From an uncultured Candidatus Saccharibacteria bacterium (lineage in GTDB: Bacteria; Patescibacteriota; Doudnabacteria; UBA920), in assembly GCA_964561085.1 (NCBI GenBank), contig CAZLNP010000001.1, forward strand, positions 75,335 to 139,334: DNA of 64,000 bases, read 5' to 3'. Made by a program: the position numbers and the translations under genes. This document shows positions 15,918 through 35,267 of this stretch, piece by piece. The stretch's first letter is position 1, and the number at the start of each line of letters is the position of its first letter. The notes under the pieces are model-generated. The model ran no database searches, was not told the DNA's origin, and saw only the letters and a program-made list of their open reading frames with translations.

Positions 15918-15992
15918 GGCGCTATCGTCTAACGGTTAGGACAGACGGTTTTCATCCGTCAAATCGGAGTTCGATTCTCCGTAGCGCTACCA
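15918..15992 (+). tRNA. tRNA-Glu (anticodon TTC), CCA encoded
   Basis: 7-bp acceptor GGCGCTA/TAGCGCT (G1-U72), D-arm GTCT AACGGTTAGG AC, anticodon stem GACGG/CCGTC with loop TTTTCAT, T-arm CGGAG TTCGATT CTCCG, discriminator A then CCA. Confidence 0.85.
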
Positions 15993-17452
15993 CCTAACAT
16001 TTTATCCCTTTTGGAGATAGGCAAACATTCTTTTTTCCAATTGGTTATTACATTTTTATCACTTAGAGAAAAGTTTTCCACTAAACTTTTCACAAGACGG
16101 CGTCGGGATTCTTCCGACGCTGTTTTGTATGCAATGGTTGGGCTTTTAAGCAGTTTTCCAAGGTTTTCCATTTTCAGCATCGATTCAGCATTTTCAGACT
16201 GTACGCCATTTAATTGTTCAGTATATTCAATTTTTTTGTTTAACAATTTTGACTTCATGGATTGATAATCTTCGCTACTGATACTTTTGTCCAAAAATCG
16301 ATCCATTATATCGTCAAGCTGTTTCTCTACTTTATGAATTTCAAATATCCATTTAGCAGTAAGCTCCCCCTGTTGGCTTTTCAAGTCTTCCCTTAACTGT
16401 CCGATTGCTTTCAAAAACATTACTACTTCTTCATCCGAAAATTCAATACCCTTTAGTTCTTCAAAAAACTGTTCATCTACAAGTTCTTCTAACAAATTAT
16501 ATTTATGTTCTGCGCTGCGGCAGTTGTAGTACTTATAATAAACATTTCTATGTACTTTAGTTGAAGAAATACATCTTAATGGTCTATCGCAGGTAGGACA
16601 ATTAAGCATTCCTTGAAATACATACAACCGTTTTCTTTTATGCTTAAAGCTCTTCTTGTCTAACACTTCCTGAACTTTATCAAATAAAGATTTAGTAATG
16701 ATCGGTTGATGAATACCTTTGAAATCTCCTTTATTAGTCCACCGTACGATTCCGTAGTAAAATGGGTTTCTAAACATTTTATAAAGTGTTTTGTGTTTTA
16801 CCAAACCACCGTCATTATTCCTTAACCCCATTTCTTTTAACTTATCCTGTAAAGGTATAATCCCATACAAACCAGTAGCAAACATTTCGAATGCTTGTTT
16901 TACAAGTCTACTTTGAACAGGGTCAGGTTCTTTGAAACCTTTTTTAGAATCTAAATAACCGATTGGAGCTCTTGATGGAAAAAGTCCTTGTTCTAACATT
17001 CTATCAAATGCTGTATTTACTTTAACCCGCAATCTTTGGCTATAGACTGTTGCCTGCCCCCATAAATCATAAATTCTTGAAAGGTCATCGTCTGATTGAG
17101 TTGTGAGATTTTCAGCAGCAAAGTGAAAGTGATAGCCTTGTTCAATAAGTTTGTAAAAATTTCCAATATCTTGGTAATTCCTTGACGATCTGTCCACGGT
17201 AGCAAAGCAAATTCCAGCTAACTTTTCTTTCTTTAATCTTTGTATTAACATGCCAAACAACTTTCTCCCAGGACGAAAGGAAGATTCTACCCCCTCAAAG
17301 AAGTCAACTATTTCTAACCCTCTCTGTTTTGCATATAGTTCTATTTGTTTCTTTTGAATTTCTGGACTCCAGTTTGTTGCTTGGTCTTTTGAACTGACCC
17401 GTACATAAGCTAAGAATTTATTATTAGATAATTTTTTCATGTTGTCCTTCAT
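15959..17452 (-). CDS. Large serine recombinase (resolvase catalytic domain + recombinase domain + zinc ribbon + coiled coil)
   Basis: AYVRVSSKDQ catalytic serine motif near N-terminus, CPTCDRPLRC...C zinc ribbon, 497 aa; C-terminal codons overlap the tRNA-Glu 3' half. Confidence 0.9.
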   Translation of the reverse strand: MKDNMKKLSNNKFLAYVRVSSKDQATNWSPEIQKKQIELYAKQRGLEIVDFFEGVESSFRPGRKLFGMLIQRLKKEKLAGICFATVDRSSRNYQDIGNFYKLIEQGYHFHFAAENLTTQSDDDLSRIYDLWGQATVYSQRLRVKVNTAFDRMLEQGLFPSRAPIGYLDSKKGFKEPDPVQSRLVKQAFEMFATGLYGIIPLQDKLKEMGLRNNDGGLVKHKTLYKMFRNPFYYGIVRWTNKGDFKGIHQPIITKSLFDKVQEVLDKKSFKHKRKRLYVFQGMLNCPTCDRPLRCISSTKVHRNVYYKYYNCRSAEHKYNLLEELVDEQFFEELKGIEFSDEEVVMFLKAIGQLREDLKSQQGELTAKWIFEIHKVEKQLDDIMDRFLDKSISSEDYQSMKSKLLNKKIEYTEQLNGVQSENAESMLKMENLGKLLKSPTIAYKTASEESRRRLVKSLVENFSLSDKNVITNWKKECLPISKRDKMLGGSATENRTPI

Positions 17453-18176
17453 ATATGTTTCCTTTATATGATATTTTATTTTTATAAATATCGTTAGTTA
17501 ATATTTTTTTAATTGTTGACGGCCACCACCTGTTACCTCCACGCTTTGTTGGTATGCTTCGCAAATTTAGGTATGCAGCAATTTTAGTAAGATTCATTCT
17601 CTTATAGCGTTTTAAGTGAAAGATTTTTCTTACAATATCTGCCTCTGCTTGATTTGTTATCAACTGTCCGTCTTTGCAGTCGTATCCGTAAATTTCTCCT
17701 CCATGCCACCTCCCCTTAGCTGCAGCCGAAGCGCGTCCGTTGGTCAGTCGCATTGTAATCATGGCTCTTTCGAATTCACTAAAAGCACCTATAATTTGCC
17801 TAAACAGTTTACGAGTTGCATCATTACTACCTAAGTCTGGTTCAGTTAGTGAGATTAGCTGTTTATTTAGTTTTATAAACTCTCTTATTAGTCCTTCCTG
17901 GATATAGAGGTCACGGGCTAATCTCGTCAGTGACAAAATTACAACTGCTTTTACTTCGCTATTAACTTCTAAATACTGCATCATTTGTGCCAGCGCTGGC
18001 CTATGTTCCAAACCGCCACTTACACCATCGTCTTTAAACCATTCAACTATTTCTATACCGTTCTTTTTTGCATAATTTGATATTGATTCAACTTGTAATT
18101 CAATGTTGTCATTTTCCGCTTGTAGTGCAGTTGATACTCTGCAATATGCTATCGCTTGCATTTTCGTTCCTTCCAT
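17424..18176 (-). CDS. Serine recombinase, short form (resolvase domain + partial recombinase domain, no zinc ribbon)
   Basis: AIAYCRVSTALQ catalytic motif; 250 aa; 3' end overlaps the start of the 497-aa recombinase by 29 nt. Confidence 0.8.
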   Translation of the reverse strand: MEGTKMQAIAYCRVSTALQAENDNIELQVESISNYAKKNGIEIVEWFKDDGVSGGLEHRPALAQMMQYLEVNSEVKAVVILSLTRLARDLYIQEGLIREFIKLNKQLISLTEPDLGSNDATRKLFRQIIGAFSEFERAMITMRLTNGRASAAAKGRWHGGEIYGYDCKDGQLITNQAEADIVRKIFHLKRYKRMNLTKIAAYLNLRSIPTKRGGNRWWPSTIKKILTNDIYKNKISYKGNIYEGQHEKII

Positions 18177-18472
18177 ATCTGATTACTAACTTTTGCGAAT
18201 TCTGACCGAGCGAACTTTATCCCCTTTAACAACGAAAACGCTTTCGCGTAATCTGCGTCTAGTATTGCCCTAATTCTGTCCTGTTCCATCTGCCTTAATT
18301 TTTGTGAAGTACCTTTTAGCCACTCGAGCCGTTCTTCACAATTAGAGAATTTCATGTTACTCCAAATATAAAACCACCAGAGAATGAACTGCCAATTGTT
18401 ACGACACAACAACAGTTTCCCTGGTGGTTTAATTAAACTATACCAAATAAAAATTTGGCGTTCAATATCCAT
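18149..18472 (-). CDS. hypothetical small protein (likely starts at internal MKFSNCEER...)
   Basis: ORF from track upstream of the recombinase pair; N-terminal part of the track ORF is tryptophan-rich and implausible. Confidence 0.3.
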   Translation of the reverse strand: MDIERQIFIWYSLIKPPGKLLLCRNNWQFILWWFYIWSNMKFSNCEERLEWLKGTSQKLRQMEQDRIRAILDADYAKAFSLLKGIKFARSEFAKVSNQIWKERKCKR

Positions 18473-18609
18473 TGTTGTGTCGTATATAAATAGTAATCAC
18501 TATAGATGGCAAAGTACAATCTAGTCCGCAACTAGCCACAAAAGTATTCCCCTGTATACTCTTTATTAAATCCTCCTAAAATGGTGTCTATGGTGTATAT
18601 GCTGTCAGG

Positions 18610-20190
18610 CTAAAATGGTATGTCAGATTCATTTAGTGTATCCAAGGCCGCTTCGTCTGAATCTTCCATGACACCAGAAACAGCATTGACACCACTCTCG
18701 TAAATCTTCGTAAATGTAATCAGTCGTGCGCCGTCCTTATCGCGAGAAACTTTGATTCCGAGCGCCATCAGGTTTGTTGCGACAACTTGCAGTCTACGCC
18801 ATAGCCAATTCGGTGTTTTTGGAAATTCTCTCTGTCTTGTGTCTTGTTTTAGCTTTATTGCCAGTTCTTGAAGCACTAATAGCAAGTCAGTTGGAGTAGC
18901 TTGATAGTGCGTTTTGTTTTCCATGAATGCAATAACAACTTGCGCCACAGGAGAGTCATCAATCGCTTCAGCATTTTGTCTGATTAGGTTTTGAGTTAAC
19001 GCATCTATAAATTCTTCTGCCGTGTGTCCAATCGCAATACTGATAGCACAGCCCCACCGCACAAAATCTGCCATACGGAAGTTGCTTATTTGTTCTGGCA
19101 GTTCCATTCCCGGGTATACTTTAATGGATTTTTGTACTGCTCCAATTATTGCGCCTAAGAGCTGCGGTCGTGCTTGTTCAAACTCTGCCATTAACACACC
19201 TTCTTCTTTATAGTTTTGAGGTCTTTCTAGTTCAATAATTAGTGAACGTTCCAACAAATCAGGTTTACTAACCACAAGATTAATTCCGTTCATGGCAACG
19301 ACACGGCGGAAGCTGTAAATAATATCATCGTCATCTGAATAGAGTTCTCGCTTTGACATACCTTCGCCAGTCACGGTTCTGCATAATAGGTCTGAAAATT
19401 CAGGTTTTATAGGTGATAGATTATCAAGCGGTAAGAAATAATGATGGCTGGCTAACTGCACATACTCTCTGCTGTCGCCATGTGCGGTTAAAGTTTCCAT
19501 TATTGATGGGTCAATTAGCCCACGGAGCAGTTTGAACAAAGTAGTTTTTCTTGACCCTTGCGGTCCGTGAACAACTAATATCGGGTGCGGGAAGTTAGGC
19601 AACACAGACGCTACGAGCCATACAAGCAGTAATAATTTTTGACGTGGTTCTTTCGGAGTAGGAATGAAGTCAAATACTTTTTCTAACTCTGCTCCTGGTA
19701 TAGGTGCAACCTGCAGGCGCTGATGTCCGAATCTGTAAAACAGAATTGGTGCAGGGTCTAGTATTTTCCACTCATCTTTATTTATCAGTACCGCACGACC
19801 ATCACCTAAATCGTAAATTATACCGTTATCAGTTTCAGCAATTCTTACATGTAGCTTTATTTCTTCGCTGTCATGCGTTGCGTGTCCTTCTAGCGTTCTA
19901 ACTGCTGTTTCTATAGTGCCAGACGACACGGCCTTGCCTAATTCATCCCAACCGAGATGCGACAACCATGACTTGAATCCACGCGACCTCAGCTTTAGAG
20001 TCTTATGTCCATTCTCCTCTACAGCTATAAAGCCGTTATCAAACTGGTCATGAAATAGTTTAACGTTTCTGTTCAGTACCAGTTCAACAAGCTGTTCGGT
20101 AAGATTCTTTTCACTATCTGATTCAACTATAGATTCAGCTACAGAATCTTGGGTTTCTTTTTCTATAATTTCGTTTTCTTTGTCTGTCAT
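18610..20190 (-). CDS. Phage/plasmid primase-associated helicase (D5/P4-type P-loop NTPase)
   Basis: Walker A VHGPQGSRKTT about 190 aa from N-terminus, acidic C-terminus; gene order immediately after a primase zinc-finger protein. Confidence 0.6.
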   Translation of the reverse strand: MTDKENEIIEKETQDSVAESIVESDSEKNLTEQLVELVLNRNVKLFHDQFDNGFIAVEENGHKTLKLRSRGFKSWLSHLGWDELGKAVSSGTIETAVRTLEGHATHDSEEIKLHVRIAETDNGIIYDLGDGRAVLINKDEWKILDPAPILFYRFGHQRLQVAPIPGAELEKVFDFIPTPKEPRQKLLLLVWLVASVLPNFPHPILVVHGPQGSRKTTLFKLLRGLIDPSIMETLTAHGDSREYVQLASHHYFLPLDNLSPIKPEFSDLLCRTVTGEGMSKRELYSDDDDIIYSFRRVVAMNGINLVVSKPDLLERSLIIELERPQNYKEEGVLMAEFEQARPQLLGAIIGAVQKSIKVYPGMELPEQISNFRMADFVRWGCAISIAIGHTAEEFIDALTQNLIRQNAEAIDDSPVAQVVIAFMENKTHYQATPTDLLLVLQELAIKLKQDTRQREFPKTPNWLWRRLQVVATNLMALGIKVSRDKDGARLITFTKIYESGVNAVSGVMEDSDEAALDTLNESDIPF

Positions 20191-20193
20191 ATT

Positions 20194-20817
20194 TTATAGT
20201 CCTAGTAAGTACTTGACGGCTTCGGGGAAAGAATAGCCGTGAAGTAACATTATGAATTTAATTGAGTTGCCCCCTTCTTGGCAGCCGAAACACCAACAAG
20301 AATTTGTTTGTGAGTAAACTGTGAATGACGGGCGTTTGTCTTCGTGGAATGGGCATAGCCCTGTGAGATTGTTTCCACTACGCCTTAGTCTGCCGTCGTA
20401 CAAATCAGCTATTGGAATTTGAGTGGCCATTTCTATTTGCTCATCTGTCAATCGTCCTTTAGGCTTCTTGCCACTGGCGACATAAACTTGCCGTCTCAGT
20501 CTTGCTATATGCTTAATTACTTCAAGTAGTTGTAGCCCGTCAGTGTGCTTAACCAATTCTCTGCAAAACCAGTATTCAAAGTCAGTTTTTGTACTGTCAT
20601 ATAATCGTTCCAGTTTCCGCAATATTGATTTCTTGACGGCTTTCTTTACGATTTGCCATTCCTTAATCTTGCTTGGCAGTACAGACTTGATTTCAGGGAA
20701 TATCGATAACAACTCAGCATCTGTATATTTGCGCTTTGAATCCCTATGTTCAGATTCCAGTTCTTCATACATGAGCCACTGCTCATAATCTTTATCGACA
20801 TGACTAGCTTGTGTCAT
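20194..20817 (-). CDS. DnaG-type primase zinc-finger (CHC2) domain protein
   Basis: C-terminal CPFHEDKRPSFTVY...CWCFGCQEGGNSIKF matches the zf-CHC2 consensus; 3-nt gap to the helicase gene. Confidence 0.6.
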   Translation of the reverse strand: MTQASHVDKDYEQWLMYEELESEHRDSKRKYTDAELLSIFPEIKSVLPSKIKEWQIVKKAVKKSILRKLERLYDSTKTDFEYWFCRELVKHTDGLQLLEVIKHIARLRRQVYVASGKKPKGRLTDEQIEMATQIPIADLYDGRLRRSGNNLTGLCPFHEDKRPSFTVYSQTNSCWCFGCQEGGNSIKFIMLLHGYSFPEAVKYLLGL

Positions 20818-21168
20818 CAGTATCTCCTTTCGACTGTTTACAATCGTTATCGAAAATATGAATGACAGCTTCTAAGTAATCTCCGTACTTGTCTAGCACT
20901 TCTTCTATATTCATTTGTTTTCTTTCTGCATAAATGCAAAAAGAGCTTTCTCAAGCAGACAAACAAAACACCCGTTCGGTGATCGTTTATCAACATAAGA
21001 AAGCCCTTCTAGTTTTTACGTATATTCTAGAAGCAGGTGTCGCACCCCCTATACTCAACGGAGCGGTAGGATAGATATACCTCGCTTATCAATGCAGTAC
21101 TGTTTAAAAAGAACTCTTTACTTAATTACTAGGTAATTATAGCAGATTCAAACAACCATGTCAAAAAA

Positions 21169-21501
21169 TTATTTAATAATTTCAAAATCTCTATTGCATT
21201 TAGGGTTAGAGCAGGTGTAGAACTCCGTCAAATTCTTAGAAACAAACCGCATCCCCTGTTTTAAAAGGCCACTCTCATGAAATGGACAATGATAACTTTT
21301 TAGTTCAATTTCAGTATTTAAAGATAAGCTAATTTTCTTGTAAGCAGACTGCTCATCAAAAATTTGTACGGTGAACTCTAAACCACATTTCTCACAAACT
21401 AAATCTAACGCACTATTATCAGTAACTTTATTAAAACGCTTCCGACCCATAGGGTTGCTACATTTTATGCAATAAATTTTCTCTGCTATTTGATTACTCA
21501 T
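21169..21501 (-). CDS. hypothetical double zinc-ribbon protein (110 aa)
   Basis: Four CxxC pairs: CIKC...CEKC and CPFH...CSNPKC. Confidence 0.4.
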   Translation of the reverse strand: MSNQIAEKIYCIKCSNPMGRKRFNKVTDNSALDLVCEKCGLEFTVQIFDEQSAYKKISLSLNTEIELKSYHCPFHESGLLKQGMRFVSKNLTEFYTCSNPKCNRDFEIIK

Positions 21502-21793
21502 ATATATATTGTAGTATTAGTTAACTTCTCTAGACGTGATTTCTTACATTCGGTTAGTACCGAGTGTCCAAGACCCTAAAGCAAGTGACTATAATATAAC
21601 AAAATAACCCCTCTCAGAATAGGCATATAAATACCTATAACCAATACAAAAAGTGTTCTCTGAGGCCATTCTAGGACTTCATGGAATGCTTCAAAGTGCC
21701 TTGTTTATAGTACTTTTAGCTGTAATGGTATATAATTAACCTACAATTCTGCCTAAACCTTCAAGTAATTGAAGGCATGGCGCAATACTAAAC

Positions 21794-21922
21794 CCACTAC
21801 TACATGAAGGCGGCTATCCGTCTTGCTTACCATGTAGTAGTGGTTATCCTTCCGAAAGGTTGGATAAGGCAAGCGGGTAGCCCCTTTTGTTTTTTAAAAT
21901 AATTAAATCCACTACTACAATG
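21794..21922 (+). repeat. iteron-like element: three copies of CCACTACTACA(A)TG (two forming a 13-bp inverted repeat) plus TTATCC/GGATAA hairpin and T-tract
   Basis: Copies at 21794-21806, 21831-21843 (inverted) and 21909-21922 (overlapping the start codon of the downstream ORF). Confidence 0.5.
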
Positions 21923-22477
21923 AAAAAATGCCCATACTGCGCTGAAGAAATGCAGGACGAAGCAGTCGTTTGCAAGCACTGCAAAAAAGATATTCCCAAA
22001 CAAGACAAGCACTTACCAACGAATGTACCCAACTTTAATCCCACATTAAATAATAGAGTTTTAATTGCTATAGTAATTATTATTGCATTGTTATGCCTTT
22101 ACGCCATAATGCGAATGAAGCAAGGCAATACTTCCGTGCCGGCAACCCCGGCAGCAACTACAAATTCAATAAGCAACCAGTCGCTAGAACACAAACTGGC
22201 TTCTATACATTCTAACGACACAGCTCCACCGCAAGAACTGGTTAATCAGTTTAAAGACCAGTTATATAAACTAAGTTTAGTATGTCCGAAAAATACCGAA
22301 CAACAACTAAGCGATTATATCGTGAAAGCACATCAACTAATCACTGAAAAGCGTCCTGTATTTACACTTCTTGAAGTTAGTCAGGGATTTTATACTAGTA
22401 TTCCAAAAACAAATACCACTACAGACTGCGTTGATTACATGACAATATACATGGCTTTAGTCCTAAAAGGTTACTAA
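21920..22477 (+). CDS. hypothetical zinc-ribbon + single-TM membrane protein
   Basis: [23 protein letters not shown] then hydrophobic [17 protein letters not shown]; start re-set from the track TTG to ATG 21920. Confidence 0.45.
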
Positions 22478-23010
22478 ACCACTAAAGTAGTATTTTTCTG
22501 CTGATTGTATTCAGCCAACTGTGCCTTCAAATTTTTAACCACTTTTCGTTTTTCTTCAATAGACACATTTGCGTTCAGGTTATGATTATGCGTAATTATA
22601 CTAGCTTCGCCAAACTCGGTACGCTGAATGTCACAGATTACTGAAAATGCACTAGCTATTGTAGCGAGTTCTTTGGGTGCTAGAATATTTTCACTTTTAG
22701 CATACTCGCCAATCATATCTAGTAAATTGCTAGTCATTTCAATACGCTTGTGTTTAGCTGTGGTCATCTGCTCCATAGAGGAAACCACCACGTCCGCATA
22801 GTTCTGTTTTTCGTCTTGGTATACTTGCGCCTTTTCTAGTTCTTGCTTGATTGATTTTTTAAACTTGCTCCAGTTGTGGCGGGAAGCATAAAGTTGCAAC
22901 GCACTGACGGCAATTTGATTTGCATAATCTTTATGAATGTCTATTAAGGATTCACCTTTAATGTAGCGTTCAAATATTTTAGAGTATTCTGCTTTAGGAA
23001 TTCGTGCCAT
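22474..23010 (-). CDS. hypothetical protein (start re-set to MARIPKAEY...), last gene of five-gene cassette
   Basis: ORF from track; overlaps stop of downstream ORF by 4 nt; N-terminal region looks helix-turn-helix-like. Confidence 0.4.
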
Positions 23011-23067
23011 AAATTTATAACTTACTATATATCTAAAATATATCAACCTCTGCAGTAAGTACACATC

Positions 23068-23676
23068 TTATTCTATGCCATGTTTATTCTTCCAATCCTT
23101 GAAAAGCTGCTCTGTTCGCTGATGTTGCTCATCTGTTAGTTCCCCTACAATTCCAGACTGTTCTTCTAGGTCAATATTTTTAGAAAGTGTTATATAATCT
23201 TTAACCATTTTTGCCTTAGTTTCTAAATCAAACAGACTATCACCGTTATAAGATAATTCTTTAATTCTGCCGTGGCTTAAACTATCTCTTATGCTTTTTA
23301 TTTTCCATAAGAATTTAGTATGTGCGGTTTTGCCCCTGACTTTCTCTACAAAGAAGATTCTATCGCCGAACGAAATTTCATTCGGTTTATACGCAGGGTG
23401 AGTAGGATCAACTTTCTCCATTTTCAAACCTATATTAGTTCTGATAAAATTGTCCAAATCTTCTGTTGAATTACCCAACATTTCATTAACTACATTAGCC
23501 GCTTGGGTTAAGGTGGAATTTAAATCCTGTTCAACGGTATGACAAAACCAAAAAGCAAATTCAACAGTTAATCTTTCTTCTTTTGAAATCTTAAGCATCG
23601 TATCAGGAATTAAGTTAGCAAAATCCTGACTGCTGTATTGCTTCAATAAATTTTCTAAATCAATTTCTTCAGTCAT
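23068..23676 (-). CDS. HEPN-like protein (Rx4H motif)
   Basis: KIKSIRDSLSHGRIKE contains R-x4-H; 202 aa; start overlaps the upstream DUF4238-like gene by 8 nt. Confidence 0.4.
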   Translation of the reverse strand: MTEEIDLENLLKQYSSQDFANLIPDTMLKISKEERLTVEFAFWFCHTVEQDLNSTLTQAANVVNEMLGNSTEDLDNFIRTNIGLKMEKVDPTHPAYKPNEISFGDRIFFVEKVRGKTAHTKFLWKIKSIRDSLSHGRIKELSYNGDSLFDLETKAKMVKDYITLSKNIDLEEQSGIVGELTDEQHQRTEQLFKDWKNKHGIE

Positions 23677-24547: not shown

Positions 24548-24548
24548 T

Positions 24549-25328: not shown

Positions 25329-25380
25329 ATTAATTTATTAATAATGTAGATTTAAATTATTTGTCAGTTAATTATCACTC

Positions 25381-26208
25381 TTAAAATAATTCAAACTTGG
25401 TAATTAGATCCTTTGGTATATAAAACTCTGATGAGAATCGTTTGCGAATGCTTTTTGCTTTGGACTTATTCCGTTCAATTATAAGTTTGATTTTCTTCTT
25501 TTCTGTATCGATAGACTGTAAATAAGATTCTAGCGTAGGCATGTCTGGACTTTTTTTATAGCACTCCTCTATTTCAATCGCAAATTTAGGTGAAAAACTA
25601 TTAGTAATAATGTAGTCGCCTATAATGGTCTTATAATTATTAGTGGGAAATAATTTTTTACCAGTTGCTACTTGAACAAACTCATTTTGAATAGTCCTTT
25701 TAACTGCTTTGTCCTGTTCTGAATCTGAACCGATAAGACAAAAAGCCAAAGTTTCATTGCTTTTGAAAGCAGCATAATAATCCAGTTCACTTTTTTTACG
25801 ATTTTTGCCTAAGTAAATCCATATATAATGGAAATTATAGAAAAATACTGGGTTATTTTTCTGCGACTCATGTAGCGGTAAAACCACATTTTTCCATTGC
25901 AAATCGTTGTGAGTCAATGAAGTAAGATGATATGTAATACTTTCTCCTTCTGAAAGATTAATCGTTTTGCCGGTATGCATTTGGGAGCTTACTTTCATTC
26001 GCCATTCCTCATTAAGAAAATATACCTTCCCTCTTTTTATTACAGATTCTGAAGCAACTAGCGAGCGCAAAGCTACATATACTGCTTGAATAGTATAGGT
26101 AGAAGATTCGCTTTTTAATTGTTCCATTAATTCAGTAACGGTTAGCTCAGAACTAATTAAAAGCCTAATTAGTTTATCTTCTAACGTTTCCTTTTGAGTG
26201 AATATCAT
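25381..26208 (-). CDS. hypothetical protein with N-terminal winged-helix-like region
   Basis: ORF from track; first gene of tightly packed minus-strand cassette. Confidence 0.35.
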   Translation of the reverse strand: MIFTQKETLEDKLIRLLISSELTVTELMEQLKSESSTYTIQAVYVALRSLVASESVIKRGKVYFLNEEWRMKVSSQMHTGKTINLSEGESITYHLTSLTHNDLQWKNVVLPLHESQKNNPVFFYNFHYIWIYLGKNRKKSELDYYAAFKSNETLAFCLIGSDSEQDKAVKRTIQNEFVQVATGKKLFPTNNYKTIIGDYIITNSFSPKFAIEIEECYKKSPDMPTLESYLQSIDTEKKKIKLIIERNKSKAKSIRKRFSSEFYIPKDLITKFELF

Positions 26209-26277
26209 GATAATAGTATAACTTAAAAGGCTCAGTTTTTAAAATATTCTTTTAAAAACCTATTATTTCACCACATT

Positions 26278-27003
26278 TTGGTTGAAAAGTCAATAGTTTT
26301 GAGCTATACTGCGCTCATGATAAATAACGAAGTCACAACTCAATACAATAATTTCCACACTGACTACAGTATTCAACTATCCGAACAGGATGAAATTAGC
26401 AATGCTATGTTCCATAAAGCAATCGATTTTGAATTAACTGATAAAAAGCTTTTGGACATAGGCTGTGGGGATGGAAGCGCATTAAAAATGCTAAGTGGTA
26501 AAGGCGCTAGTGTCTATGGAATAGACCCCTCTACGGAATTCTTAAAAAAGGCGGAAATTAATAATCCTACTGGGATATTCAGACAGGGTGTTGGAGAAGC
26601 ACTCCCCTTTGAGGCTAATTACTTCGATGTAGTAGTCTCGAAATGGGCAATGCAAACATCTCCTGATGTGCCTGGAATATTGTCCGAAGCAGCTCGAGTT
26701 CTTAAGCCTGGTGGTATGTTCGTATTTTTAACCAAGCATCCTATTCAACAGTGGCTTGAAAAAATTAGAGATTACGGGCATGGATCTAATTACTACTCAC
26801 AGCAAATTGTTACCTCTAACATCTATGAGGGTACTATTAAGCTAAAAGAACCAACTCATACAATTGGGGAATATCTTAACGCAGACTTCTTTAAGAACTT
26901 TGAGGTTCTTGATTACAAAGAAGAGACTCAATTCCCTGCTTCTGAACAATTCAATAATGATATTTACCCCACCTTCCTTTTGATTAAGGCTCGTAAGAAA
27001 TAA
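26278..27003 (+). CDS. Class I SAM-dependent methyltransferase (UbiE/COQ5-like)
   Basis: LLDIGCGDGS motif I and VLKPGGMFVF; true start may be the ATG near 26316 (MINNEV). Confidence 0.75.
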   Translation: MVEKSIVLSYTALMINNEVTTQYNNFHTDYSIQLSEQDEISNAMFHKAIDFELTDKKLLDIGCGDGSALKMLSGKGASVYGIDPSTEFLKKAEINNPTGIFRQGVGEALPFEANYFDVVVSKWAMQTSPDVPGILSEAARVLKPGGMFVFLTKHPIQQWLEKIRDYGHGSNYYSQQIVTSNIYEGTIKLKEPTHTIGEYLNADFFKNFEVLDYKEETQFPASEQFNNDIYPTFLLIKARKK

Positions 27004-27007
27004 TCAC

Positions 27008-27541
27008 ATGAAAATTGCAATATTTAGTTCGTGGCTTCCAGAAGTCAATGAGTATAACCAAAAACTTGCGATACAAATTGCTGAATATTTAGCCGATAAA
27101 GATATCACGGTTGTCACTGGTGGATGTAGCGGTATTCCCGCAGCAGTCGTTGAAGCAGCGCACAATAAAGGAGTAAAAACTATCGGATACTTCCCACATA
27201 AAAGTAAGGAAGAATACCATGACCGCCAGCACGAAAAAAATATTCATGCTTTAGACTATTATTCAACTGCTCATTTTATTTCCGGTTTTACAGCTCGTAG
27301 CTTAGAAATGATCAAAAATGTAGATGCGGCTATAGTCTTGAACGGTAGGATTGGCACCCTATCAGAATTTGGAATTGCAATCGAGGAAGGTTTACCATTA
27401 GCAGTGATTGAGGGCACTGGCGGTATTACTGATGAATTACGAAATCTTGTAAAAGTAGCTCAAAAAGAATTCCCTAATAACGAGGTAATATTCGAACAAG
27501 ACTACAAAAAAGCTATTGATATGCTAATATCAAACCATTAA
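27008..27541 (+). CDS. LOG/TIGR00725-like Rossmann-fold nucleotide-binding protein (SLOG superfamily)
   Basis: VVTGGCSGIPAAVVEAA glycine-rich motif and ...GRIGTLSEF... typical of LOG-like phosphoribohydrolase fold. Confidence 0.6.
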   Translation: MKIAIFSSWLPEVNEYNQKLAIQIAEYLADKDITVVTGGCSGIPAAVVEAAHNKGVKTIGYFPHKSKEEYHDRQHEKNIHALDYYSTAHFISGFTARSLEMIKNVDAAIVLNGRIGTLSEFGIAIEEGLPLAVIEGTGGITDELRNLVKVAQKEFPNNEVIFEQDYKKAIDMLISNH

Positions 27542-27544
27542 TAC

Positions 27545-27576
27545 AAAACGGTCCAATTCAGGACCGTTTTTGTTTT
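27545..27576. terminator. bidirectional intrinsic terminator (LOG-like / HAD convergent pair)
   Basis: AAAACGGTCC-AATTCA-GGACCGTTTT perfect hairpin then TTGTTTT; overlaps last codons of the HAD gene. Confidence 0.6.
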
Positions 27577-28241
27577 GATTCAAAAATTTCAGTTAACTCT
27601 GCCAAAGAAGATATAAACTTGTCTGGCTCCGCACTATCCGGAATAGGAATGATTTCACGTTTATACAATATCGTGCTCAAGCCTAACAATTTGGCTTGAA
27701 GTAATCCCCTATACCAATTATCATCTATTAAAACGCTTTCAGATGGCAATGCACCCGAATCTTTCAATATTTCTAAATAAAAATTCGGGTCGGGTTTTTG
27801 CAGTCCAATGTGTCCTGACATTTTTTGATGGGAAAAATATTGCAACAAACCAGCATCTTCTAATACATTACCAGCTTTAACATTTTGGTTGGCCATAATT
27901 CCCAAGTTAAAAGATTTGCTCAATCCTGAAAGCACCTCCATCGCTTCAGGACGAACTTTCGATAAACCATAATAATCTACATTACATTCGTTGTTGTATA
28001 CTAACTCAGCTTCTTCTTTAAGTTTAGAGTCCTTAAATAGATAATGTAAGGCATTAATCCTAACGCTCCCAGGTTGCTGAGATGCAAACAGCCAAGCTTC
28101 GTAGATATTTGCCATAGTTATATTAGGCAAATACCGCTGTGCTACATTGAACAAAATTTCTTGTCGTAATGTCTCTGGCTTCGTATCATCTAGGATAACG
28201 CCTCCCATATCAAAGAATAGCCATTTGATGTTTTCTTTCAT
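27558..28241 (-). CDS. HAD-superfamily hydrolase
   Basis: FDMGGVI (motif I DxG), ...LIDDN (motif IV) and GHIGLQKPD region. Confidence 0.75.
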   Translation of the reverse strand: MKENIKWLFFDMGGVILDDTKPETLRQEILFNVAQRYLPNITMANIYEAWLFASQQPGSVRINALHYLFKDSKLKEEAELVYNNECNVDYYGLSKVRPEAMEVLSGLSKSFNLGIMANQNVKAGNVLEDAGLLQYFSHQKMSGHIGLQKPDPNFYLEILKDSGALPSESVLIDDNWYRGLLQAKLLGLSTILYKREIIPIPDSAEPDKFISSLAELTEIFESKQKRS

Positions 28242-28319
28242 GCAATTAGTATACCATCTTCAATTAAAGGTATGACACCAGAGACACCATTTTTGTCATA
28301 ATATATATTCTATTAACCA

Positions 28320-28420
28320 ATCCACATGGAATCACCAGAGGTCATCGTGGTAACTCTAGGATAATCTTAGAACTCACCACTATGATTGAGTTTTGGATTT
28401 TACCGAAAAGTTTTGAAAAC
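28320..28420. repeat. intergenic repeat element, copy A (shares three blocks with copy B at 30530-30760)
   Basis: CCACATGGAATCACC / GGTCATCGTGGTAACTCTAGGA / GAGTTTTGGATTTTACCGAAAAGTTTTGAAAAC recur, partly permuted, at 30532-30557, 30686-30720 and 30720-30737. Confidence 0.5.
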
Positions 28421-29184
28421 TATATCTTCTCCCAAATACCTTTAAACATCTCGCGTAGGTTTTGCGCCATAACTGCATCGTGAGTCTCAACCATATAATG
28501 CGGGTGTTGATTTGTAACTATAAACATTACATAATCTCCCAAGACCACATGCGTTGCGGTAAAGTCTACAGTTTTATCCCAATATTTTGTTTGACGTCTA
28601 TCGTCAGATACTCTATTCGCAACTTCTTTTTCAACTTGTTTGTTATTTGTAAATACTCTTAAACCAAAATTTTCCGGAAAGATTTCCCAATGATACTCAA
28701 CCCAATCTTTATATTCTTCCAATAGAGAAGTGTCCTGGAATCCCCACCAATTTTTATCATCTAATTTCTTAGCACTTTCTATCCAAACTGGTAATTGCTT
28801 TTTAAGAAAATCAGCTAGCTGAGGTTCATCTATAAAACGAATTTTAGGCACTGAATACTGCTTAGACTTAGGTAACGCCTGGAGTTCTAAGATTGCCTGT
28901 TCTATGGCAGTCTTTTTTTGTTCTAATTCCTGCTCTTGAGATTTATATAGAGTACGAAGCTCTTCAGGTGGCAAAGCAGTGTAATAAGTAGTAGTTCCCC
29001 CTAGGTCTTCTTGAATAACCCCCTTTTTTACAAGTTCCTTTGAAACACCATATACAGTGGTTCTATTGATTTTAGAAATACGAGACACATCAGCGGCTGA
29101 TAGTTTGCCATTCTCTTGAATACATAGATATACCGAGATTTCTTTATCAGTGAAGCCTAATTGTTGTAAATATTCATTTAACAT
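28420..29184 (-). CDS. TrmB-family transcriptional regulator
   Basis: N-terminal LGFTDKEISVYLCIQENGKLSAADVSRISKINRTTVYGVSKELVKKGVI winged-HTH characteristic of TrmB, plus C-terminal sensing domain. Confidence 0.75.
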   Translation of the reverse strand: MLNEYLQQLGFTDKEISVYLCIQENGKLSAADVSRISKINRTTVYGVSKELVKKGVIQEDLGGTTTYYTALPPEELRTLYKSQEQELEQKKTAIEQAILELQALPKSKQYSVPKIRFIDEPQLADFLKKQLPVWIESAKKLDDKNWWGFQDTSLLEEYKDWVEYHWEIFPENFGLRVFTNNKQVEKEVANRVSDDRRQTKYWDKTVDFTATHVVLGDYVMFIVTNQHPHYMVETHDAVMAQNLREMFKGIWEKI

Positions 29185-29284
29185 AGCTTAATTATAGCAT
29201 GTTGTTGAAGATAAATCAACAGTTATTTAATGGCTTATTTACGATATTATTTAGATTAATTTCTACATTCTTTTGAAGTAGTAT

Positions 29285-29313
29285 TGACAAAAGAGCAAAA
29301 ATCTGTTATACTG
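29285..29313 (+). promoter_or_regulatory. consensus sigma70 promoter TTGACA-17-TATACT for the PLP-fold gene
   Basis: TTGACAaaagagcaaaaatctgtTATACT followed by GAGGAGG Shine-Dalgarno and ATG at 29364. Confidence 0.6.
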
Positions 29314-29363
29314 GTAAGTCAAAAATAAAAACTATTAAAAAACAAGTCTTGAGGAGGACAATA

Positions 29364-30422
29364 ATGAATACACTATCGAACAAAAGAAAGGCTCTCTATG
29401 CTTCAATCTTGGGTTCTGTAAAGAACTCCCCTGTCGAGTCTATCGAGTTTGAGGGTAACCATTACCACTTCAAGCTTGATTACAAACTTCCCTACGGGGA
29501 ATGCCATTATGCCAGAGTGTTTTCTCAGCTAATATATCTCAAGGAATGCTTAGGCATTATCAAACCTGGAGATACATTACTAGAAACAACTTCCGGTTCT
29601 GGCGGACGAGGTGCAGCTGCTGTAGCAACTGCTCTTGGATACCGGATTATAATCGGCCTTCCCGCCGGTGGAGAAAAAGCTCGTGAAGATGCCATCAAGA
29701 AAGCGGGTGGAGAACTACTTCTTACGCCGTCTGAAGCTTACGTAAATGGTTTCCCGGAATTCATCAAAAAGTATCTTGTTGAAAACCGTGGAACCAGATA
29801 TATCAATCATGTTATGGGCGATATATCTGGCAGAGGGATTTCCATTAATCATGCGGCGATTAATGCCTTCCGCCCATTTGTGTACGAAGTATTGGAAGCT
29901 GGTATTAAACCAGACGTTGTGATCAGTCCTCTTGGCAACGGGACTACAACGCTTCCAATGGTTGAGGGGTTCAAATCTCTCTTTGCGAAAACAGAAGTTG
30001 TAGGTTTTGAGTCTGTTGCTGCCGGTTATGCACACAGAAAATACTATGCTGGCAAGTACGAAGACATCTTCGGAATAAACCCAGATGTGTTTACTCGGCA
30101 TGACCTGCCGGGCTCATCACCTTCTCACACAACTTTTCCAATGCCCGCTCTAGATGCAGCAATACCGCAACTAGATGGTGTCGGATTGGTGACAAGTGAT
30201 TACACAGATCGACTGTTCAGTGAAACCGTTGGCTTCAAGCCTTCGGATAAAAGTAACTGGGTCGTGAAGTGGGATGACTTTCATCATTCTGCGCTAACGG
30301 AATTTGGCCGGACTGGCAGAGCCGGTTTCGCACTCGCCGTCACATTGGCACGTAAAAAAGAAGTGTCTGGCAAACATTTTCTTGTACCAATATTTGACGC
30401 ATCCTGGCATTACGATAGCTGA
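29364..30422 (+). CDS. PLP-fold type II (CysK/tryptophan-synthase-beta-like) protein, apparently lacking the Schiff-base lysine
   Basis: IIKPGDTLLETTSGSGGRGAA matches the cysteine-synthase [21 protein letters not shown] Gly-loop. The position of the SIKDR lysine reads GECHYAR. Start re-set from the track TTG to ATG 29364. Confidence 0.65.
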   Translation: MNTLSNKRKALYASILGSVKNSPVESIEFEGNHYHFKLDYKLPYGECHYARVFSQLIYLKECLGIIKPGDTLLETTSGSGGRGAAAVATALGYRIIIGLPAGGEKAREDAIKKAGGELLLTPSEAYVNGFPEFIKKYLVENRGTRYINHVMGDISGRGISINHAAINAFRPFVYEVLEAGIKPDVVISPLGNGTTTLPMVEGFKSLFAKTEVVGFESVAAGYAHRKYYAGKYEDIFGINPDVFTRHDLPGSSPSHTTFPMPALDAAIPQLDGVGLVTSDYTDRLFSETVGFKPSDKSNWVVKWDDFHHSALTEFGRTGRAGFALAVTLARKKEVSGKHFLVPIFDASWHYDS

Positions 30423-30529
30423 AAAGCGCTCGAACTGATTATCTTTACGATAGTCAGTTCTTTTTTATTCTAAGAACATACTTTTACATGAATTATATGA
30501 ATATATTACTTGTACATTTCTATGACTCT

Positions 30530-30760
30530 CGGGGTCATCTAGTGAACTCTAGGAGGTGTCTGAGTTTCCATATAAACTTCTCTTACTAAAGCCAAATAGT
30601 TTTTCCACCTGTACCTATAGGACCTACCACGCAAATTCAAAACACCCTCACGGGTGTTTTTGCGTAGGTTTTCATTGGCTATGCGTGAGTTTTCAGTTTG
30701 ACCTAAAAGTTTTGAAAACCACATGGTATCCATCGTGATTTGAAAACTTTATTAGCTAGG
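30530..30760. repeat. intergenic composite repeat, copy B (blocks shared with copy A and copy C) including a hairpin AAAACACCC-TCAC-GGGTGTTTT
   Basis: 30579-30629 TCTCTTACTA..TTTTCCACCTGTACCTATAGGACCTACCA is ~90% identical to 31682-31731. Other blocks match copy A. Track ORFs 30539..30733 and 30556..30738 lie entirely inside the repeat. Confidence 0.55.
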
Positions 30761-30782
30761 GTAAAGTGAGTATAATGAATAT

Positions 30783-31667
30783 ATGAGTGAATTTAATAAA
30801 AACATACCAGGTACAGAGTTCAGTAATATCCCAGCACAGAGGGAAAATATAGAAAAACCATCTCCGGAATCCATTGCTTTAGAAAAACTAAAAAGCTCAG
30901 GCGAGATATTGTCCTATTACAAACAAAGCCGATCTACTTATATCGACATGAATGGTTGGCAAACTGATTTATCTGACGAAGAGGTTATTAACCATTTTAA
31001 GGAATCCCCTACTTTATTCCATAGCACATTTTTAACTAAAGAAAATAAAATAGAGCGGATAGGCCAGCAAGGATTAACAACCGAATCCTTCCGCGAACGC
31101 GCTGGTATTAAACCAGAACCACCCCTTGCAGAGGTGGTACAAGAAGCGAATGAGTATACAGAAGACGACTTTTGGAATGACATGATGGAAATGGAATATG
31201 ATATGGATAGTGCTTTCAAAAAAAGTCCTGAATACAATAAAAAGTATATATCCTTTTCATACTTACCTTGGTGGAATGAGCGTGAGATTATTGAAGATGC
31301 CCCGAATTCCGAATTTGACTTTGATGATAATGGCAAGATTAAGGATTTGAAAATTAGCATAGCACTTAATCCAAAATCTGGCCGTAGAATAATCGAAGAA
31401 AATCTAGAAAGCTTGAAAGATAATGATAGCGAGATAGCAAAGTTAGGCCGATTAACTTCCTTCTGCGAAGTCCTCGAACCAATCCGAACGGCACCCAGAG
31501 ATTTTGCTGCAATATTCCTATTAATCAAAGGTTACGAAGATATTGACGATCCAAAGAAAAAAGAATTATTTGTAAAATTTATTGAAAGATTAGGAGGCAA
31601 AAGTCAGTTGCCTATCTTTGATTACTACGGTAATTTGCTTTGGCCCCACCAGAATAAAGCTAACTAA
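30783..31667 (+). CDS. hypothetical acidic protein (294 aa) flanked by direct repeat copies B and C
   Basis: ORF from track; no motif assigned. Confidence 0.45.
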   Translation: MSEFNKNIPGTEFSNIPAQRENIEKPSPESIALEKLKSSGEILSYYKQSRSTYIDMNGWQTDLSDEEVINHFKESPTLFHSTFLTKENKIERIGQQGLTTESFRERAGIKPEPPLAEVVQEANEYTEDDFWNDMMEMEYDMDSAFKKSPEYNKKYISFSYLPWWNEREIIEDAPNSEFDFDDNGKIKDLKISIALNPKSGRRIIEENLESLKDNDSEIAKLGRLTSFCEVLEPIRTAPRDFAAIFLLIKGYEDIDDPKKKELFVKFIERLGGKSQLPIFDYYGNLLWPHQNKAN

Positions 31668-31681
31668 TGATATAATAAATC

Positions 31682-31770
31682 TCTCTTACTAGCGCCATAA
31701 AGGTTTTCCACCTGTATCTATAGGACCTACCAACAGTCCGCAGTATCGAGAGACCCAAATGGGTCTTTTA
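31682..31770. repeat. intergenic repeat copy C plus terminator-like hairpin AGACCC-AAAT-GGGTCT-TTT
   Basis: See copy B; the repeat is followed about 20 nt later by a stem-loop and T-run. Confidence 0.5.
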
Positions 31771-31786
31771 AAATAATTTATTATAT

Positions 31787-32596
31787 ATGAAAAATCGCAT
31801 CATTTTAATAAGCATAATATCCATTGCTTTATTAGCCGTTAGCTGCAGCGAGCAAGCACCGTCTGTTGATAATGCCAATACAAACTTACCTACATCAAAT
31901 TTACAAGAAGCAGATAATTCAAATAATTCTCAGCAAACCGATAATAATTTTTACGACAAAATTAACCAGAATACTAGCACTTGGAAAACATATTCCAATA
32001 ATTCTTTAGCGCTATCGTTTCAATATCCTAATGAACTAGGTGAAGTAAAAGAGGGCGCGGGTTCAAATGGTTATTCTCATGATTTTTCATTCACAAAAGA
32101 AAACCAAAGCTACAGCTATACTGCCATTCTTCCTTTTTCCCGAGATTCTATAAATAGCTATAACAACCAAATCAAAATTGAAAATATGGGAGAACGAGGC
32201 CCAGGTGAAACAAACGATTTTCCTGTAGAAATAGCAACTACTATAATTACTACAAAGCCAGTCGATTATAATTGCTCAAAAGATTTTGGACTTGATGTAA
32301 CTGCTAATGAATTTTGTAGCATTGTAAATATTAACGACACCAAGATTATCAGATCCATAACCAACGGCGATGGGCCTAATGGTAGAGATGCATCGTCTCT
32401 TGCATATTTATTCTATAAAGATGGTGCTTGGGTATCGTTTGCAAAAACTTTTTATGTATATCGATTTAGCAATGACGAAAGTTCTTACCCCAATTCCATG
32501 CTGAGCAAAGAATTAAATGCAAAAACGCGCAATGAAAAAGTAAAAGCTGAATTGGATATATTCGATAAGATGTTAAAAACAGTAAGTCTGGAATAA
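31787..32596 (+). CDS. hypothetical lipoprotein
   Basis: MKNRIILISIISIALLAVSC: signal peptide with lipobox-like LAVSC. Confidence 0.55.
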   Translation: MKNRIILISIISIALLAVSCSEQAPSVDNANTNLPTSNLQEADNSNNSQQTDNNFYDKINQNTSTWKTYSNNSLALSFQYPNELGEVKEGAGSNGYSHDFSFTKENQSYSYTAILPFSRDSINSYNNQIKIENMGERGPGETNDFPVEIATTIITTKPVDYNCSKDFGLDVTANEFCSIVNINDTKIIRSITNGDGPNGRDASSLAYLFYKDGAWVSFAKTFYVYRFSNDESSYPNSMLSKELNAKTRNEKVKAELDIFDKMLKTVSLE

Positions 32597-32714
32597 TCAT
32601 ATTTGCATCGATTTTGCCCTAAGACTCGAATGCATCAAAACGACTGTGTGAAATCTCCTAGAAATCCTTTATAGCTCCCCTAGTTGATCAGTTCTAGACG
32701 CGGTATCACTACCA

Positions 32715-32752
32715 AGAAAAAAGTACTCCAATTATTGGAGTACTTTTTTCTT
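32715..32752. terminator. bidirectional intrinsic terminator
   Basis: AAAAAAGTACTCCA-ATTATT-GGAGTACTTTTTT perfect 14-bp stem. Confidence 0.65.
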
Positions 32753-32805
32753 TGCCATGCTTGCTTATTGAAAGCAGTTCAATCCAAACTACTCCTAAAT
32801 AATTC

Positions 32806-33549: not shown

Positions 33550-33581
33550 AGTTTTATCCTTTAATTACAGTTAGTCTAGCA

Positions 33582-34760: not shown

Positions 34761-35170
34761 AGTCCGAACAACTCAAAAGAATGTCCAGTCACTTGCTTAA
34801 AATTTACAGAGTTTTTAATAGCTTTGCTTATGATGGAATCAAGATCACAATTCTCTATGTCTTCCACTTTCCCGCACTGACTACAAATAAAGTGATGATG
34901 ATCCTCTAAACCCGCAAACTCATAATGACCATGTCCATGCTGAAAATTAATTTGTTTTATCAAACCCGCCGCTAAAAACTCTTTGATAGAGCGGTAGACA
35001 GTCGCCATATCTGGAGCAGGTTCAGTGAATTTTCTATAAATCCCTTCTACAGACAGCGGCTTCTTACTCTTTGCCAATATAGACAAAAGCTGGACTTTTG
35101 ATTGAGTCGCCTTGAAACCTGCCTTCCTTAGCAAATCAGCGTATTGATTGTCGATTCTAGGTGTTTTCAT
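34739..35170 (-). CDS. Fur-family metalloregulator (likely Zur given divergent ZIP transporter)
   Basis: wHTH N-domain, HHHFICSQCGKV...C..C metal-site motifs. Confidence 0.8.
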   Translation of the reverse strand: MKTPRIDNQYADLLRKAGFKATQSKVQLLSILAKSKKPLSVEGIYRKFTEPAPDMATVYRSIKEFLAAGLIKQINFQHGHGHYEFAGLEDHHHFICSQCGKVEDIENCDLDSIISKAIKNSVNFKQVTGHSFELFGLCGKCTL

Positions 35171-35203
35171 GTTATTTACATACTAGCATTTAGTTGATCT
35201 AAA

Positions 35204-35245: not shown

Positions 35246-35267
35246 TTCAATCAATAATATTTTTCAA

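Follow-up and report, generated by a model that had tools for sequence, protein, structure and literature searches.

How does a tRNA gene come to share its 3′ half with a recombinase gene on the opposite strand, and what has been inserted there? The locus that raises this question lies in a 64-kb stretch of DNA (the window, by which we mean the whole stretch analysed). ARAGORN predicts a single tRNA in it, a bona fide tRNA-Glu(UUC) that scores 60.6 bits with the Rfam tRNA model, and an earlier note on this DNA had proposed an integrative element of about 17 kb beside that gene. We find that positions 15993-32714 very probably constitute a composite integrative element, inserted site-specifically at the last six bases (CTACCA) of tRNA-Glu(UUC). 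The host belongs to the candidate phyla radiation (CPR). Homologs of the SPFH protein encoded next to the insert are from Patescibacteria, the nearest ones beyond the same species being labelled Moraniibacteriota. The following features frame the insert:

15918-15992, forward strand: tRNA-Glu(UUC) with encoded CCA (ARAGORN), the target gene
15987-15992, forward strand: left CTACCA core (attL), consisting of the last two acceptor-stem bases, the discriminator base and CCA, as placed by the junction table and the empty site
15959-17452, reverse strand: large serine recombinase (integrase) of 497 aa, with Resolvase and Recombinase domains
32714-32752, forward strand: rho-independent terminator of the host, directly 3′ of the tRNA CCA in the empty site

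Three natural locus states define the insert to the base

Related strains were found through exact-protein look-ups (SPFH, 269-aa and 294-aa proteins) followed by blastn. The SPFH look-up yielded a 1,251-nt contig (L090) whose flanks are 94.5-94.8% identical to the window at the nucleotide level and in which window position 15992 is joined directly to 32715: the tRNA-Glu gene ends in ...GTAGCGCTACCA and is followed at once by AGAAAAAAGTACTCCAATTATTGGAGTACTTTTTTCTT and then by the SPFH gene. Because of this joint in the empty site (state 0), the insert is exactly 15993-32714 (16,722 bp), and it is flanked by the same hexamer, CTACCA, at 15987-15992 and 32709-32714. Three further contigs, L255 (14.7 kb), L256 and L258, represent an intermediate state 1, in which 15992 is joined to 31733 through one CTACCA and only the last 982 bp of the insert, with the gene for the 269-aa protein, are present; the window itself, with the full insert, is state 2. 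The locus is thus polymorphic for presence and absence, with related strains that lack the insert or hold only part of it and junctions that are precise to the base. Throughout the three states the tRNA-Glu gene is intact and identical, and the hairpin at 32714-32752, already seen as a strong terminator in the earlier note, is the original terminator of this tRNA. The insert also stands out in windowed GC content, at 0.35-0.37, the left flank having 0.43 and the right flank 0.415.

The right end had been suspected from a degenerate copy of the tRNA 3′ end at 32689-32714 (18/26 matches), a match that is weak taken alone, since two sites in the window reach 18/26; the joint in L090 now places the boundary precisely there. 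No other site with at least 19 matches to a 25-mer of the tRNA is found in the window, nor in the related loci L081, L083 and L084, so that no second tRNA copy exists in them and the crossover is therefore placed at the extreme 3′ end of the tRNA, leaving the host gene whole. On the same grounds, no displaced tRNA half having turned up, we dropped a model in which the crossover falls in the anticodon or T-loop and the element brings its own 3′ half of the tRNA.

The insert is a stack of three units

The earlier note had treated the insert as one element. Its integrative nature holds up, but the single unit does not: because the intermediate-state contigs break at internal CTACCA cores, the insert reads as a composite of three units placed end to end:

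15993-30629: unit A, 14.6 kb, with the recombinases, the replication module, the LOOT RNA gene and the cargo
30572-30629, forward strand: arm D1a, with core CTACCA at 30624-30629, at the unit A/unit B junction
30630-31732, forward strand: unit B, 1,103 bp, with a terminator hairpin, a 294-aa open reading frame (ORF; 30783-31667) and arm D1b
31675-31732, forward strand: arm D1b, with core CTACCA at 31727-31732, the right end of unit B
31733-32714, forward strand: unit C, 982 bp, with a terminator hairpin, a 269-aa ORF (31787-32596) and a degenerate arm
32685-32714, forward strand: degenerate arm of unit C, with core CTACCA at 32709-32714

All four joints in the window and all joints in the related loci have the form x-CTACCA-y. 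D1a and D1b are 86% alike, and the likeness ends exactly after CTACCA. A gene duplication was rejected as their origin, as the 294-aa and 269-aa proteins encoded beside the internal repeats are unrelated.

Unit B also occurs elsewhere, with 100% identity in L253 and L254 and 97.6% in L252 (blastn). In L252 it sits after a different element with McrBC and DNA methylase cargo, and in both L252 and L253 the sequence past it runs CTACCA-AAAAACACCC... and on into a peptidase gene and a giant fn3 gene. Since the latter is only 66-69% identical to its counterpart in the window at the nucleotide level, L252 and L253 come from another host species, and the identity of unit B points to its recent transfer between the two. 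Two unitigs of sample SRR12762285, L254 (equivalent to window 30623-31733) and L089 (31704-36144), end one base outside the unit B cores, where the contexts of unit B first differ (ACAG... versus AAAAAC... on the right, ...GGAC versus ...CGTC on the left); judged from these contig ends, the sample fits a co-existence of both contexts.

Joints of the type arm-CTACCA-integrase 3′ end were seen only for the relatives L085 and L260. For a block of units A and B, the predicted attP would read D1b-CTACCA-CCTAACATT, and inspection by eye of the left and right half-sites in the reconstructed attP sites gave no convincing inverted-repeat symmetry.

Separately, a 53-nt repeat, D2 (77% identity), relates window 28340-28432 to 30533-30556 plus 30679-30731. 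Together with its left neighbour it reproduces the flanks of the D1a-core-hairpin block without that block (...GAACTCACCA abutting CTATGATTGAG...). The D2 site may be a fourth, decayed junction, in which case the stretch with the TrmB and pyridoxal phosphate (PLP) enzyme genes (28380-30629) would be an older accreted unit.

A large serine integrase whose gene ends inside the tRNA

Next to the tRNA lies the 497-aa integrase gene, with two smaller genes upstream of it:

17424-18176, reverse strand: truncated serine recombinase of 250 aa, with the catalytic domain and part of the recombinase domain
18149-18472, reverse strand: 107-aa protein, directly upstream of the recombinases, with homologs beside the integrase in L081 and L084

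The integrase ORF overlaps the tRNA by 34 nt, that is 10 codons, the stop codon and 1 nt, in line with the reach into the tRNA 3′ half described in the earlier note; its tail is ...GGSATENRTPI, then stop (printed end ...KRDKMLGGSATENRTPI, then stop). The protein has the domain architecture of large serine recombinases: it matches PF00239 (resolvase catalytic domain; residues 14-122, E 1e-14), PF07508 (Recombinase; 55 bits) and, under the cut-off of 25.3, PF13408 (Zn_ribbon_recom; 21.6 bits), and residues 167-473 align to the C-terminal domain of the serine integrase of Listeria phage A118 (4KIS, E 5e-8). Across an alignment of 25 homologs, Y16, R18, V19 and S20 of the serine nucleophile motif and cysteines C285, C288 and C311 are invariant. 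The family scans, over the ORFs examined, brought up neither a tyrosine recombinase nor a transposase.

The second serine recombinase of the earlier note is likewise present, in truncated form: it keeps the catalytic-serine motif and ends within the recombinase domain. It appears to be retained rather than decaying, because it is 61% identical to its counterpart in L081 (L081 4574-5314) and has the same end point, stopping at the same residue (...HEKII and ...YKTII, each before the stop codon). The truncated gene overlaps the integrase start by 29 nt in both the window and L081, and its best family matches are CcrB-like. The 107-aa protein matches no family in our profile scans, Pfam and PHROGs included; from its position it is a candidate accessory or directionality factor.

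Overlap with a tRNA is shared across the integrase family. We collected 110 integrase homologs at E ≤1e-10 and surveyed the 3′ ends in 80 metagenome loci together with the closer relatives of the integrase, which gave 50 distinct complete ends. In 20 of them the gene ends within an antisense tRNA, with overlaps of 12-71 nt and nine tRNA types (Glu, Arg, Asn, Leu, His, Ala, Trp, Gln and Val), and the C-terminal tails of the family are recognisable as reverse-complement tRNA peptides (...NRTPI, ...EDSNL, ...GTRTRN). Antisense tRNA-Glu itself is overlapped, by 34 or 64 nt, in L081/L082 (68% integrase identity), L083 and L172 (45%) and L084 and L173 (43%), and the host genes past the tRNA differ among these loci. 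Among the 2.9 million viral contigs of IMG/VR we found only distant recombinases, none above 29% identity. One related locus (L260, 9306-19612) is a tandem, with two integrases in series that end at tRNA-Ala, the second overlapping all 74 nt of the tRNA.

Far-end arms extend the reading frame of the integrase

D1-type arms also lie at the far ends of the related elements, on the tRNA strand and 8.9-10.5 kb from the integrase in L083, L172, L084 and L173, followed each time by CTACCA and then a terminator hairpin. When translated from the integrase strand in the phase of the core (where TGGTAG gives G-R), six distinct arms encode a WKTYLALVREVY-like peptide, with the consensus G-R-x4-(R/G/K)-W-K-T-(Y/F/A)-(L/M)-(A/G)-(L/I/M)-(V/I)-x-x-(V/I)-Y in 6/6; the minus strand of D1a, for instance, encodes GRSYRYRWKNYLALVREVY.... 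In all six the frame stays open for at least 19 further codons in phase with the integrase, and a six-frame search of ~3.5 Mb found the peptide only at arm sites. In L260, the upstream integrase P0023 (521 aa) indeed reads through the core into the arm of the next element and contains the arm peptide. The codon differences between arms comprise 42 synonymous and 82 non-synonymous changes, the replacements being conservative (Y/F, L/M, V/I). Because the far-end arms continue the integrase frame, integration appears to swap the C-terminus of the integrase: for the window protein, the free form is predicted to end in ...GGRSYRYRWKTFMALVREIYYIIS (stop) and the integrated form in ...GGSATENRTPI (stop).

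The arm of unit C and the arm behind the integrase of L085 make up a second, more tRNA-like type. That arms in general might be tRNA mimics was considered and rejected, as no Rfam tRNA match was obtained at the arms even at E ≤10 and only the unit C arm reaches 18/26 in register.

An orphan RNA marks the border between core and cargo

Where the earlier note had suggested searching for an attachment half-site, at 21800-21900, we find an RNA gene instead:

21750-21882, forward strand: LOOT RNA gene (RF03000; Rfam), at the border between core module and cargo

The window copy has its own TATAAT box and terminal T-run and is the weakest member, at 50.3 bits against a gathering threshold of 46.4, and the copies of the relatives score 69-85.5 bits (L081, L083, L084, L085 and L086, the last with two). 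A covariance model built from these sequences gave 13 matches in 1.0 Mb, which cover the window and all integrase loci of at least 34% identity with enough flank, plus L260; neither the more distant integrase loci nor the control CPR loci, 1.1 Mb in all, had a match. In every case LOOT precedes a variable ORF on its own strand, by a few to ~60 nt, and stands where the replication/integration core gives way to the cargo. In the literature that we searched, LOOT figures solely as an RNA derived from metagenomes, with no role assigned to it (PMC7779021, PMC7657543).

Several observations concern the RNA itself. LOOT is apparently ~35 nt longer than the Rfam model (window 21750-21920; likewise in L081, L083-L086, L175-L177 and L260), and the conserved extra 3′ segment (...GCGGGGGGCTTTGTGTT...) is able to base-pair with the apical loop of LOOT's long hairpin. 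Loop and tail change together, as CCCTCCG/CGGGGGG, CCCTGCG/CGTGGGG, CCCTACG/CGTAGGG, CCCATCG/CGGTGGG and CCCGTCA/TGGCGGG, with GGCTATCCGT/GCGGGTAGCC in the window; position and co-variation suggest a loop-tail pseudoknot, for which individual shuffle tests are weak. In 2 of 11 LOOT loci the 5′ strand of the long stem is repeated at the start codon of the next ORF, as CCACTACTACA directly before ATG in the window (21794-21804 and 21910-21920) and CCATAGC before ATG in L085 (3004-3012 and about 3129-3137), and the repeat changes together with the stem; LOOT or a read-through transcript could thus pair with the translation start. In L086 (11627-15026), like L260 a tandem array, two LOOT genes facing in opposite directions surround an operon of the cyclic oligonucleotide-based antiphage signalling system (CBASS) type, with SMODS, HORMA, AAA and DUF6602.

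A probable plasmid-type replication module and variable cargo

The remaining genes of unit A fall into a replication module and the cargo:

18610-20190, reverse strand: 526-aa P-loop protein, corresponding to the helicase-like module of CPR primase-helicase replication proteins
20194-20817, reverse strand: 207-aa protein with a C-terminal DnaG-type CHC2 zinc finger
21136-21164, reverse strand: perfect TTGACA-17-TATAAT promoter with TG extension, facing the replication and integrase genes
21887-30422: variable cargo of unit A, ~8.5 kb, divergent from the core operon

Behind the promoter follow, in this order, the genes for the 207-aa, 526-aa and 107-aa proteins, the truncated recombinase and the integrase. 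The 526-aa protein is 51% identical to a 538-aa protein of L083 and L172, and many of its homologs are fused to PrimPol plus PriCT_1, Toprim or RepB-primase domains, which makes the helicase-like half of a plasmid-type replication protein its most likely identity; such a module would suit a replicative episomal stage. The primase-helicase pair proposed earlier is thus supported in part and indirectly, by the zinc finger, the sole such feature of the 207-aa protein, and by the P-loop module with its primase-fused homologs. The iteron-like repeats of the earlier note come down to a single 9-nt repeat in 2.9 copies, whose motif is not enriched.

The cargo encodes a zinc-ribbon protein, a DUF4238 protein (150 bits), a weak HEPN_Apea match, two S-adenosylmethionine (SAM) methyltransferases, SLOG, HAD hydrolase and TrmB proteins, the PLP enzyme and proteins without assignment. 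Pfam scans, with PHROGs for ten proteins, revealed no phage structural, packaging or lysis genes, and the window proteins scanned include no conjugation machinery (type IV secretion system, FtsK-like TraB). Among the relatives examined, a DUF87/FtsK-like ATPase occurs only in L085; other relatives carry CBASS (L086) or a reverse transcriptase with methylases (L084, L083). An integron was considered and set aside, as no tyrosine recombinase was found and the units end in arm plus CTACCA rather than attC, so that the likeness is one of layout only.

The chromosomal neighbourhood

None of the 80 CPR SPFH loci has tRNA-Glu beside SPFH, gene order being unconserved at that distance; strains informative for the locus came only from the exact-protein look-ups. 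SPFH adjoins tRNA-Thr(CGU) in many CPR genomes (L002, L004, L007, L008, L013, L019, L023, L025 and L040), and because of this the tRNA-Glu/SPFH adjacency is lineage-specific. The window also holds two giant ORFs, 10066-15348 (1,760 aa) and 52907-63868 (3,653 aa). The former encodes a surface-type protein with fn3/IG repeats, and its orthologs adjoin tRNA-Glu or the far end of the element in L084, L252 and L253, on the opposite side of the tRNA compared with the window. A 95%-identical contig from a metagenome-assembled genome (L001/L088) is collinear with window 32270-42093 and then jumps to 46173-46683 and 47389-48283, which points to a second indel or rearrangement of ~4 kb (window 42093-46173) between the window strain and L001/L088.

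A model of accretion at the tRNA end, and its alternatives

In the model that we propose, unit A would be the autonomous part, next to units B and C, which are integrase-less single-gene units, each with an arm plus CTACCA end; the stack would have been built by accretion, through successive recombination at the tRNA-proximal junction. In the simplest history, unit C would have arrived first and units A and B (15,740 bp) would then have entered as a block between the tRNA and C. The 497-aa integrase would recognise mainly the T-arm and acceptor side of the tRNA and cut within or beside CTACCA, so that the tRNA stays whole and the incoming left end brings either a new terminator or the 3′ end of the integrase gene. 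The integrase ORF contains the core: a free or tandem element would complete the gene with ~20-30 arm codons that include the WKTYLALVREVY-like motif, and in the integrated form these would be replaced by 10-20 codons from the antisense tRNA. We offer as speculation, and rather doubt ourselves, a bolder extension, in which the integrase gene is built across attP so that its state-dependent C-terminus (WKTYLALVREVY-like versus antisense-tRNA tail) helps to set the direction of recombination, integration or excision, as an inbuilt switch of a kind not known for serine integrases, the tRNA end serves as a loading platform for integrase-less units, and LOOT acts as the regulatory or replication RNA of the element.

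A number of points weigh against a composite element moved by its own integrase. State 0 is based on a single 1.25-kb contig and state 1 on three contigs. Large serine integrases normally read both attB half-sites, and the target sequences right of the core (AGAAAAAAG..., ACAGTCCG..., CGCAAATTC... and AAAAACACCC...) are unrelated. Integration into an already occupied, attL-like junction would be non-canonical for these enzymes, and the junctions do not allow the 2-bp crossover to be placed within the shared 6-bp CTACCA. Neither an excised circle nor an attP junction appeared among the contigs, although no search was aimed at one, and the window revealed neither an identifiable recombination directionality factor nor an identifiable primase catalytic domain. 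Units B and C, which lack an integrase, may be moved in some way or may be mere leftovers. As for the arms, the 42:82 ratio is compatible with coding constraint and likewise with pure DNA-site constraint.

A single 16.7-kb element, with D1a and D1b as duplicated 3′-untranslated-region/terminator modules that play no role in recombination, would account for the whole-block presence or absence that L090 shows by itself, and for the position of each D1 repeat behind a gene and before a hairpin. We consider it very unlikely: L255, L256 and L258 break exactly at the D1b core, the core-bounded unit B recurs with 100% identity in a second host, the two repeats lie behind genes that are not related to each other, and the same arm forms the far end in L083 and L084. 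Nor would it be easy to explain the locus states by deletions in the other strains, through homologous or illegitimate recombination across a fixed island. The direction of change is unreadable from the sequences, and slippage via the CTACCA repeats is possible in principle; six bases, however, are too short for homologous recombination, one and the same hexamer is used at the tRNA end by three different junction pairs, this architecture is seen again at tRNA-Glu in host contexts that are unrelated and at a further eight tRNA types, and a precise loss that restores tRNA and terminator is itself the signature of site-specific excision, all of which makes this account extremely improbable. A prophage or phage satellite, inserted by a phage serine integrase, has a slim chance. 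Serine integrases are classic phage enzymes, PHROGs matches were obtained for the integrase and the primase zinc finger, and defence-like cargo (DUF4238, HEPN) is common on prophages and satellites, but none of the scanned proteins matched a capsid, portal, terminase, tail or lysis function, 14.6 kb is too small for a tailed phage, the viral contigs of IMG/VR hold no relative above 29% identity, and the DUF87/FtsK-like ATPase of L085 speaks for a biology like that of plasmids or of AICEs (the integrative, conjugative elements of actinomycetes).

The alternative that we take most seriously concerns the arms: the far-end arm (GTTTTCCACCxGTA...) may be purely a DNA-binding site of the integrase, with the peptide as a by-product and a tail that plays no state-dependent part. 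In A118-type structures, large serine integrases touch attP with their zinc-ribbon domains 20-30 bp away from the core, which is where the motif lies, and the synonymous to non-synonymous ratio is only mildly skewed. Against this stand the frame, open in phase with the integrase for at least 19 further codons in 6/6 distinct arms, the conservative nature of the substitutions, and the preservation of the motif in a tRNA-Ala-targeting element, where it is read within the 521-aa integrase. We regard a pure DNA site as a real possibility, though one that falls short of even chances.

Relation to known systems and implications

With the elements of phiC31, Bxb1, A118, SCCmec CcrAB and Tn5397 TndX, the window insert shares the resolvase, recombinase and zinc-ribbon/coiled-coil architecture of the enzyme, a very short site identity without long direct repeats, and an integrase gene at the element edge. 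It differs from them in several ways: it targets the 3′ end of a tRNA gene and keeps that gene intact, its integrase ORF crosses the core and stops within the tRNA, the right half-sites are unconserved, the units are stacked, and it is found in a CPR bacterium together with a linked LOOT RNA. Closer in target are phiRSM1 and phiRSM3, in which a small serine recombinase (ORF14) uses a 13-nt core at the 3′ end of tRNA-Ser (PMC3816273). Both systems use serine-family enzymes and a short core that is the tRNA 3′ end, in reverse orientation to the integrase gene; phiRSM, however, is an inovirus rather than a plasmid-like island, with an enzyme of resolvase/invertase size that lacks the large C-terminal domain and a core that is intergenic.

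Ghinet 2011 describes eight Mycobacterium AICEs with serine recombinases in tRNA-Leu, calls such cases rare and gives only phiRSM1 as precedent (PMC3218068), and Mageeney 2020, which likewise calls them rare, places 14/297 S-Int islands at t(m)RNA genes and asks for experimental proof (PMC7192596). The Mycobacterium AICEs combine, like the window, a replication gene with an integrase, and the cases of both papers are, as here, large serine integrases placed at tRNA genes by bioinformatics; the hosts in the two accounts are Actinobacteria and other cultured phyla, whereas the window host is CPR. The passages of PMC3218068 and PMC7192596 that we consulted contain no description of an overlap of integrase and tRNA genes, a C-terminal swap, accretion or an RNA partner.

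Two further likenesses lie outside the serine integrases. In SSV1-type archaeal integrases, attP lies inside the integrase gene, which is split when the element enters a tRNA gene; an integrase ORF that holds the core, the tRNA target and an integrated gene copy that differs from the free one are shared with the window, but the SSV1-type enzymes are tyrosine recombinases cut mid-gene, whereas the serine integrase of the window would lose or exchange its last 20-30 codons and keep all known domains. Accretion is familiar from the streptococcal ICEs (integrative, conjugative elements) and CIMEs (cis-mobilizable elements) and from SXT/R391 tandem arrays, the latter cited in PMC3218068, where successive insertions occur at one att site and integrase-less units can ride along; these form arrays with internal att sites as in the window, but with tyrosine recombinases and longer identical cores. 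What is new here is the combination: an element with a large serine integrase that targets the 3′ end of a tRNA, with its core inside the integrase gene, accreted integrase-less units, a link to LOOT and a CPR host.

Serine integrases have, to our knowledge, long been thought not to target tRNA genes. The natural series of three states fixes the junctions of one such element to the base, and the design is common to a whole integrase clade that uses nine tRNA types. Large serine integrases are prized tools of genome engineering; the target of this clade is seemingly set mostly by the conserved tRNA side, the other side being tolerant, which, if true, would make it attractive for portable landing sites. 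The orphan LOOT RNA now has a genomic context, so that its function becomes approachable by experiment. Very few mobile elements have, as far as we know, been described in the candidate phyla radiation, and the present case includes evidence for the very recent transfer of an identical 1.1-kb unit between species.

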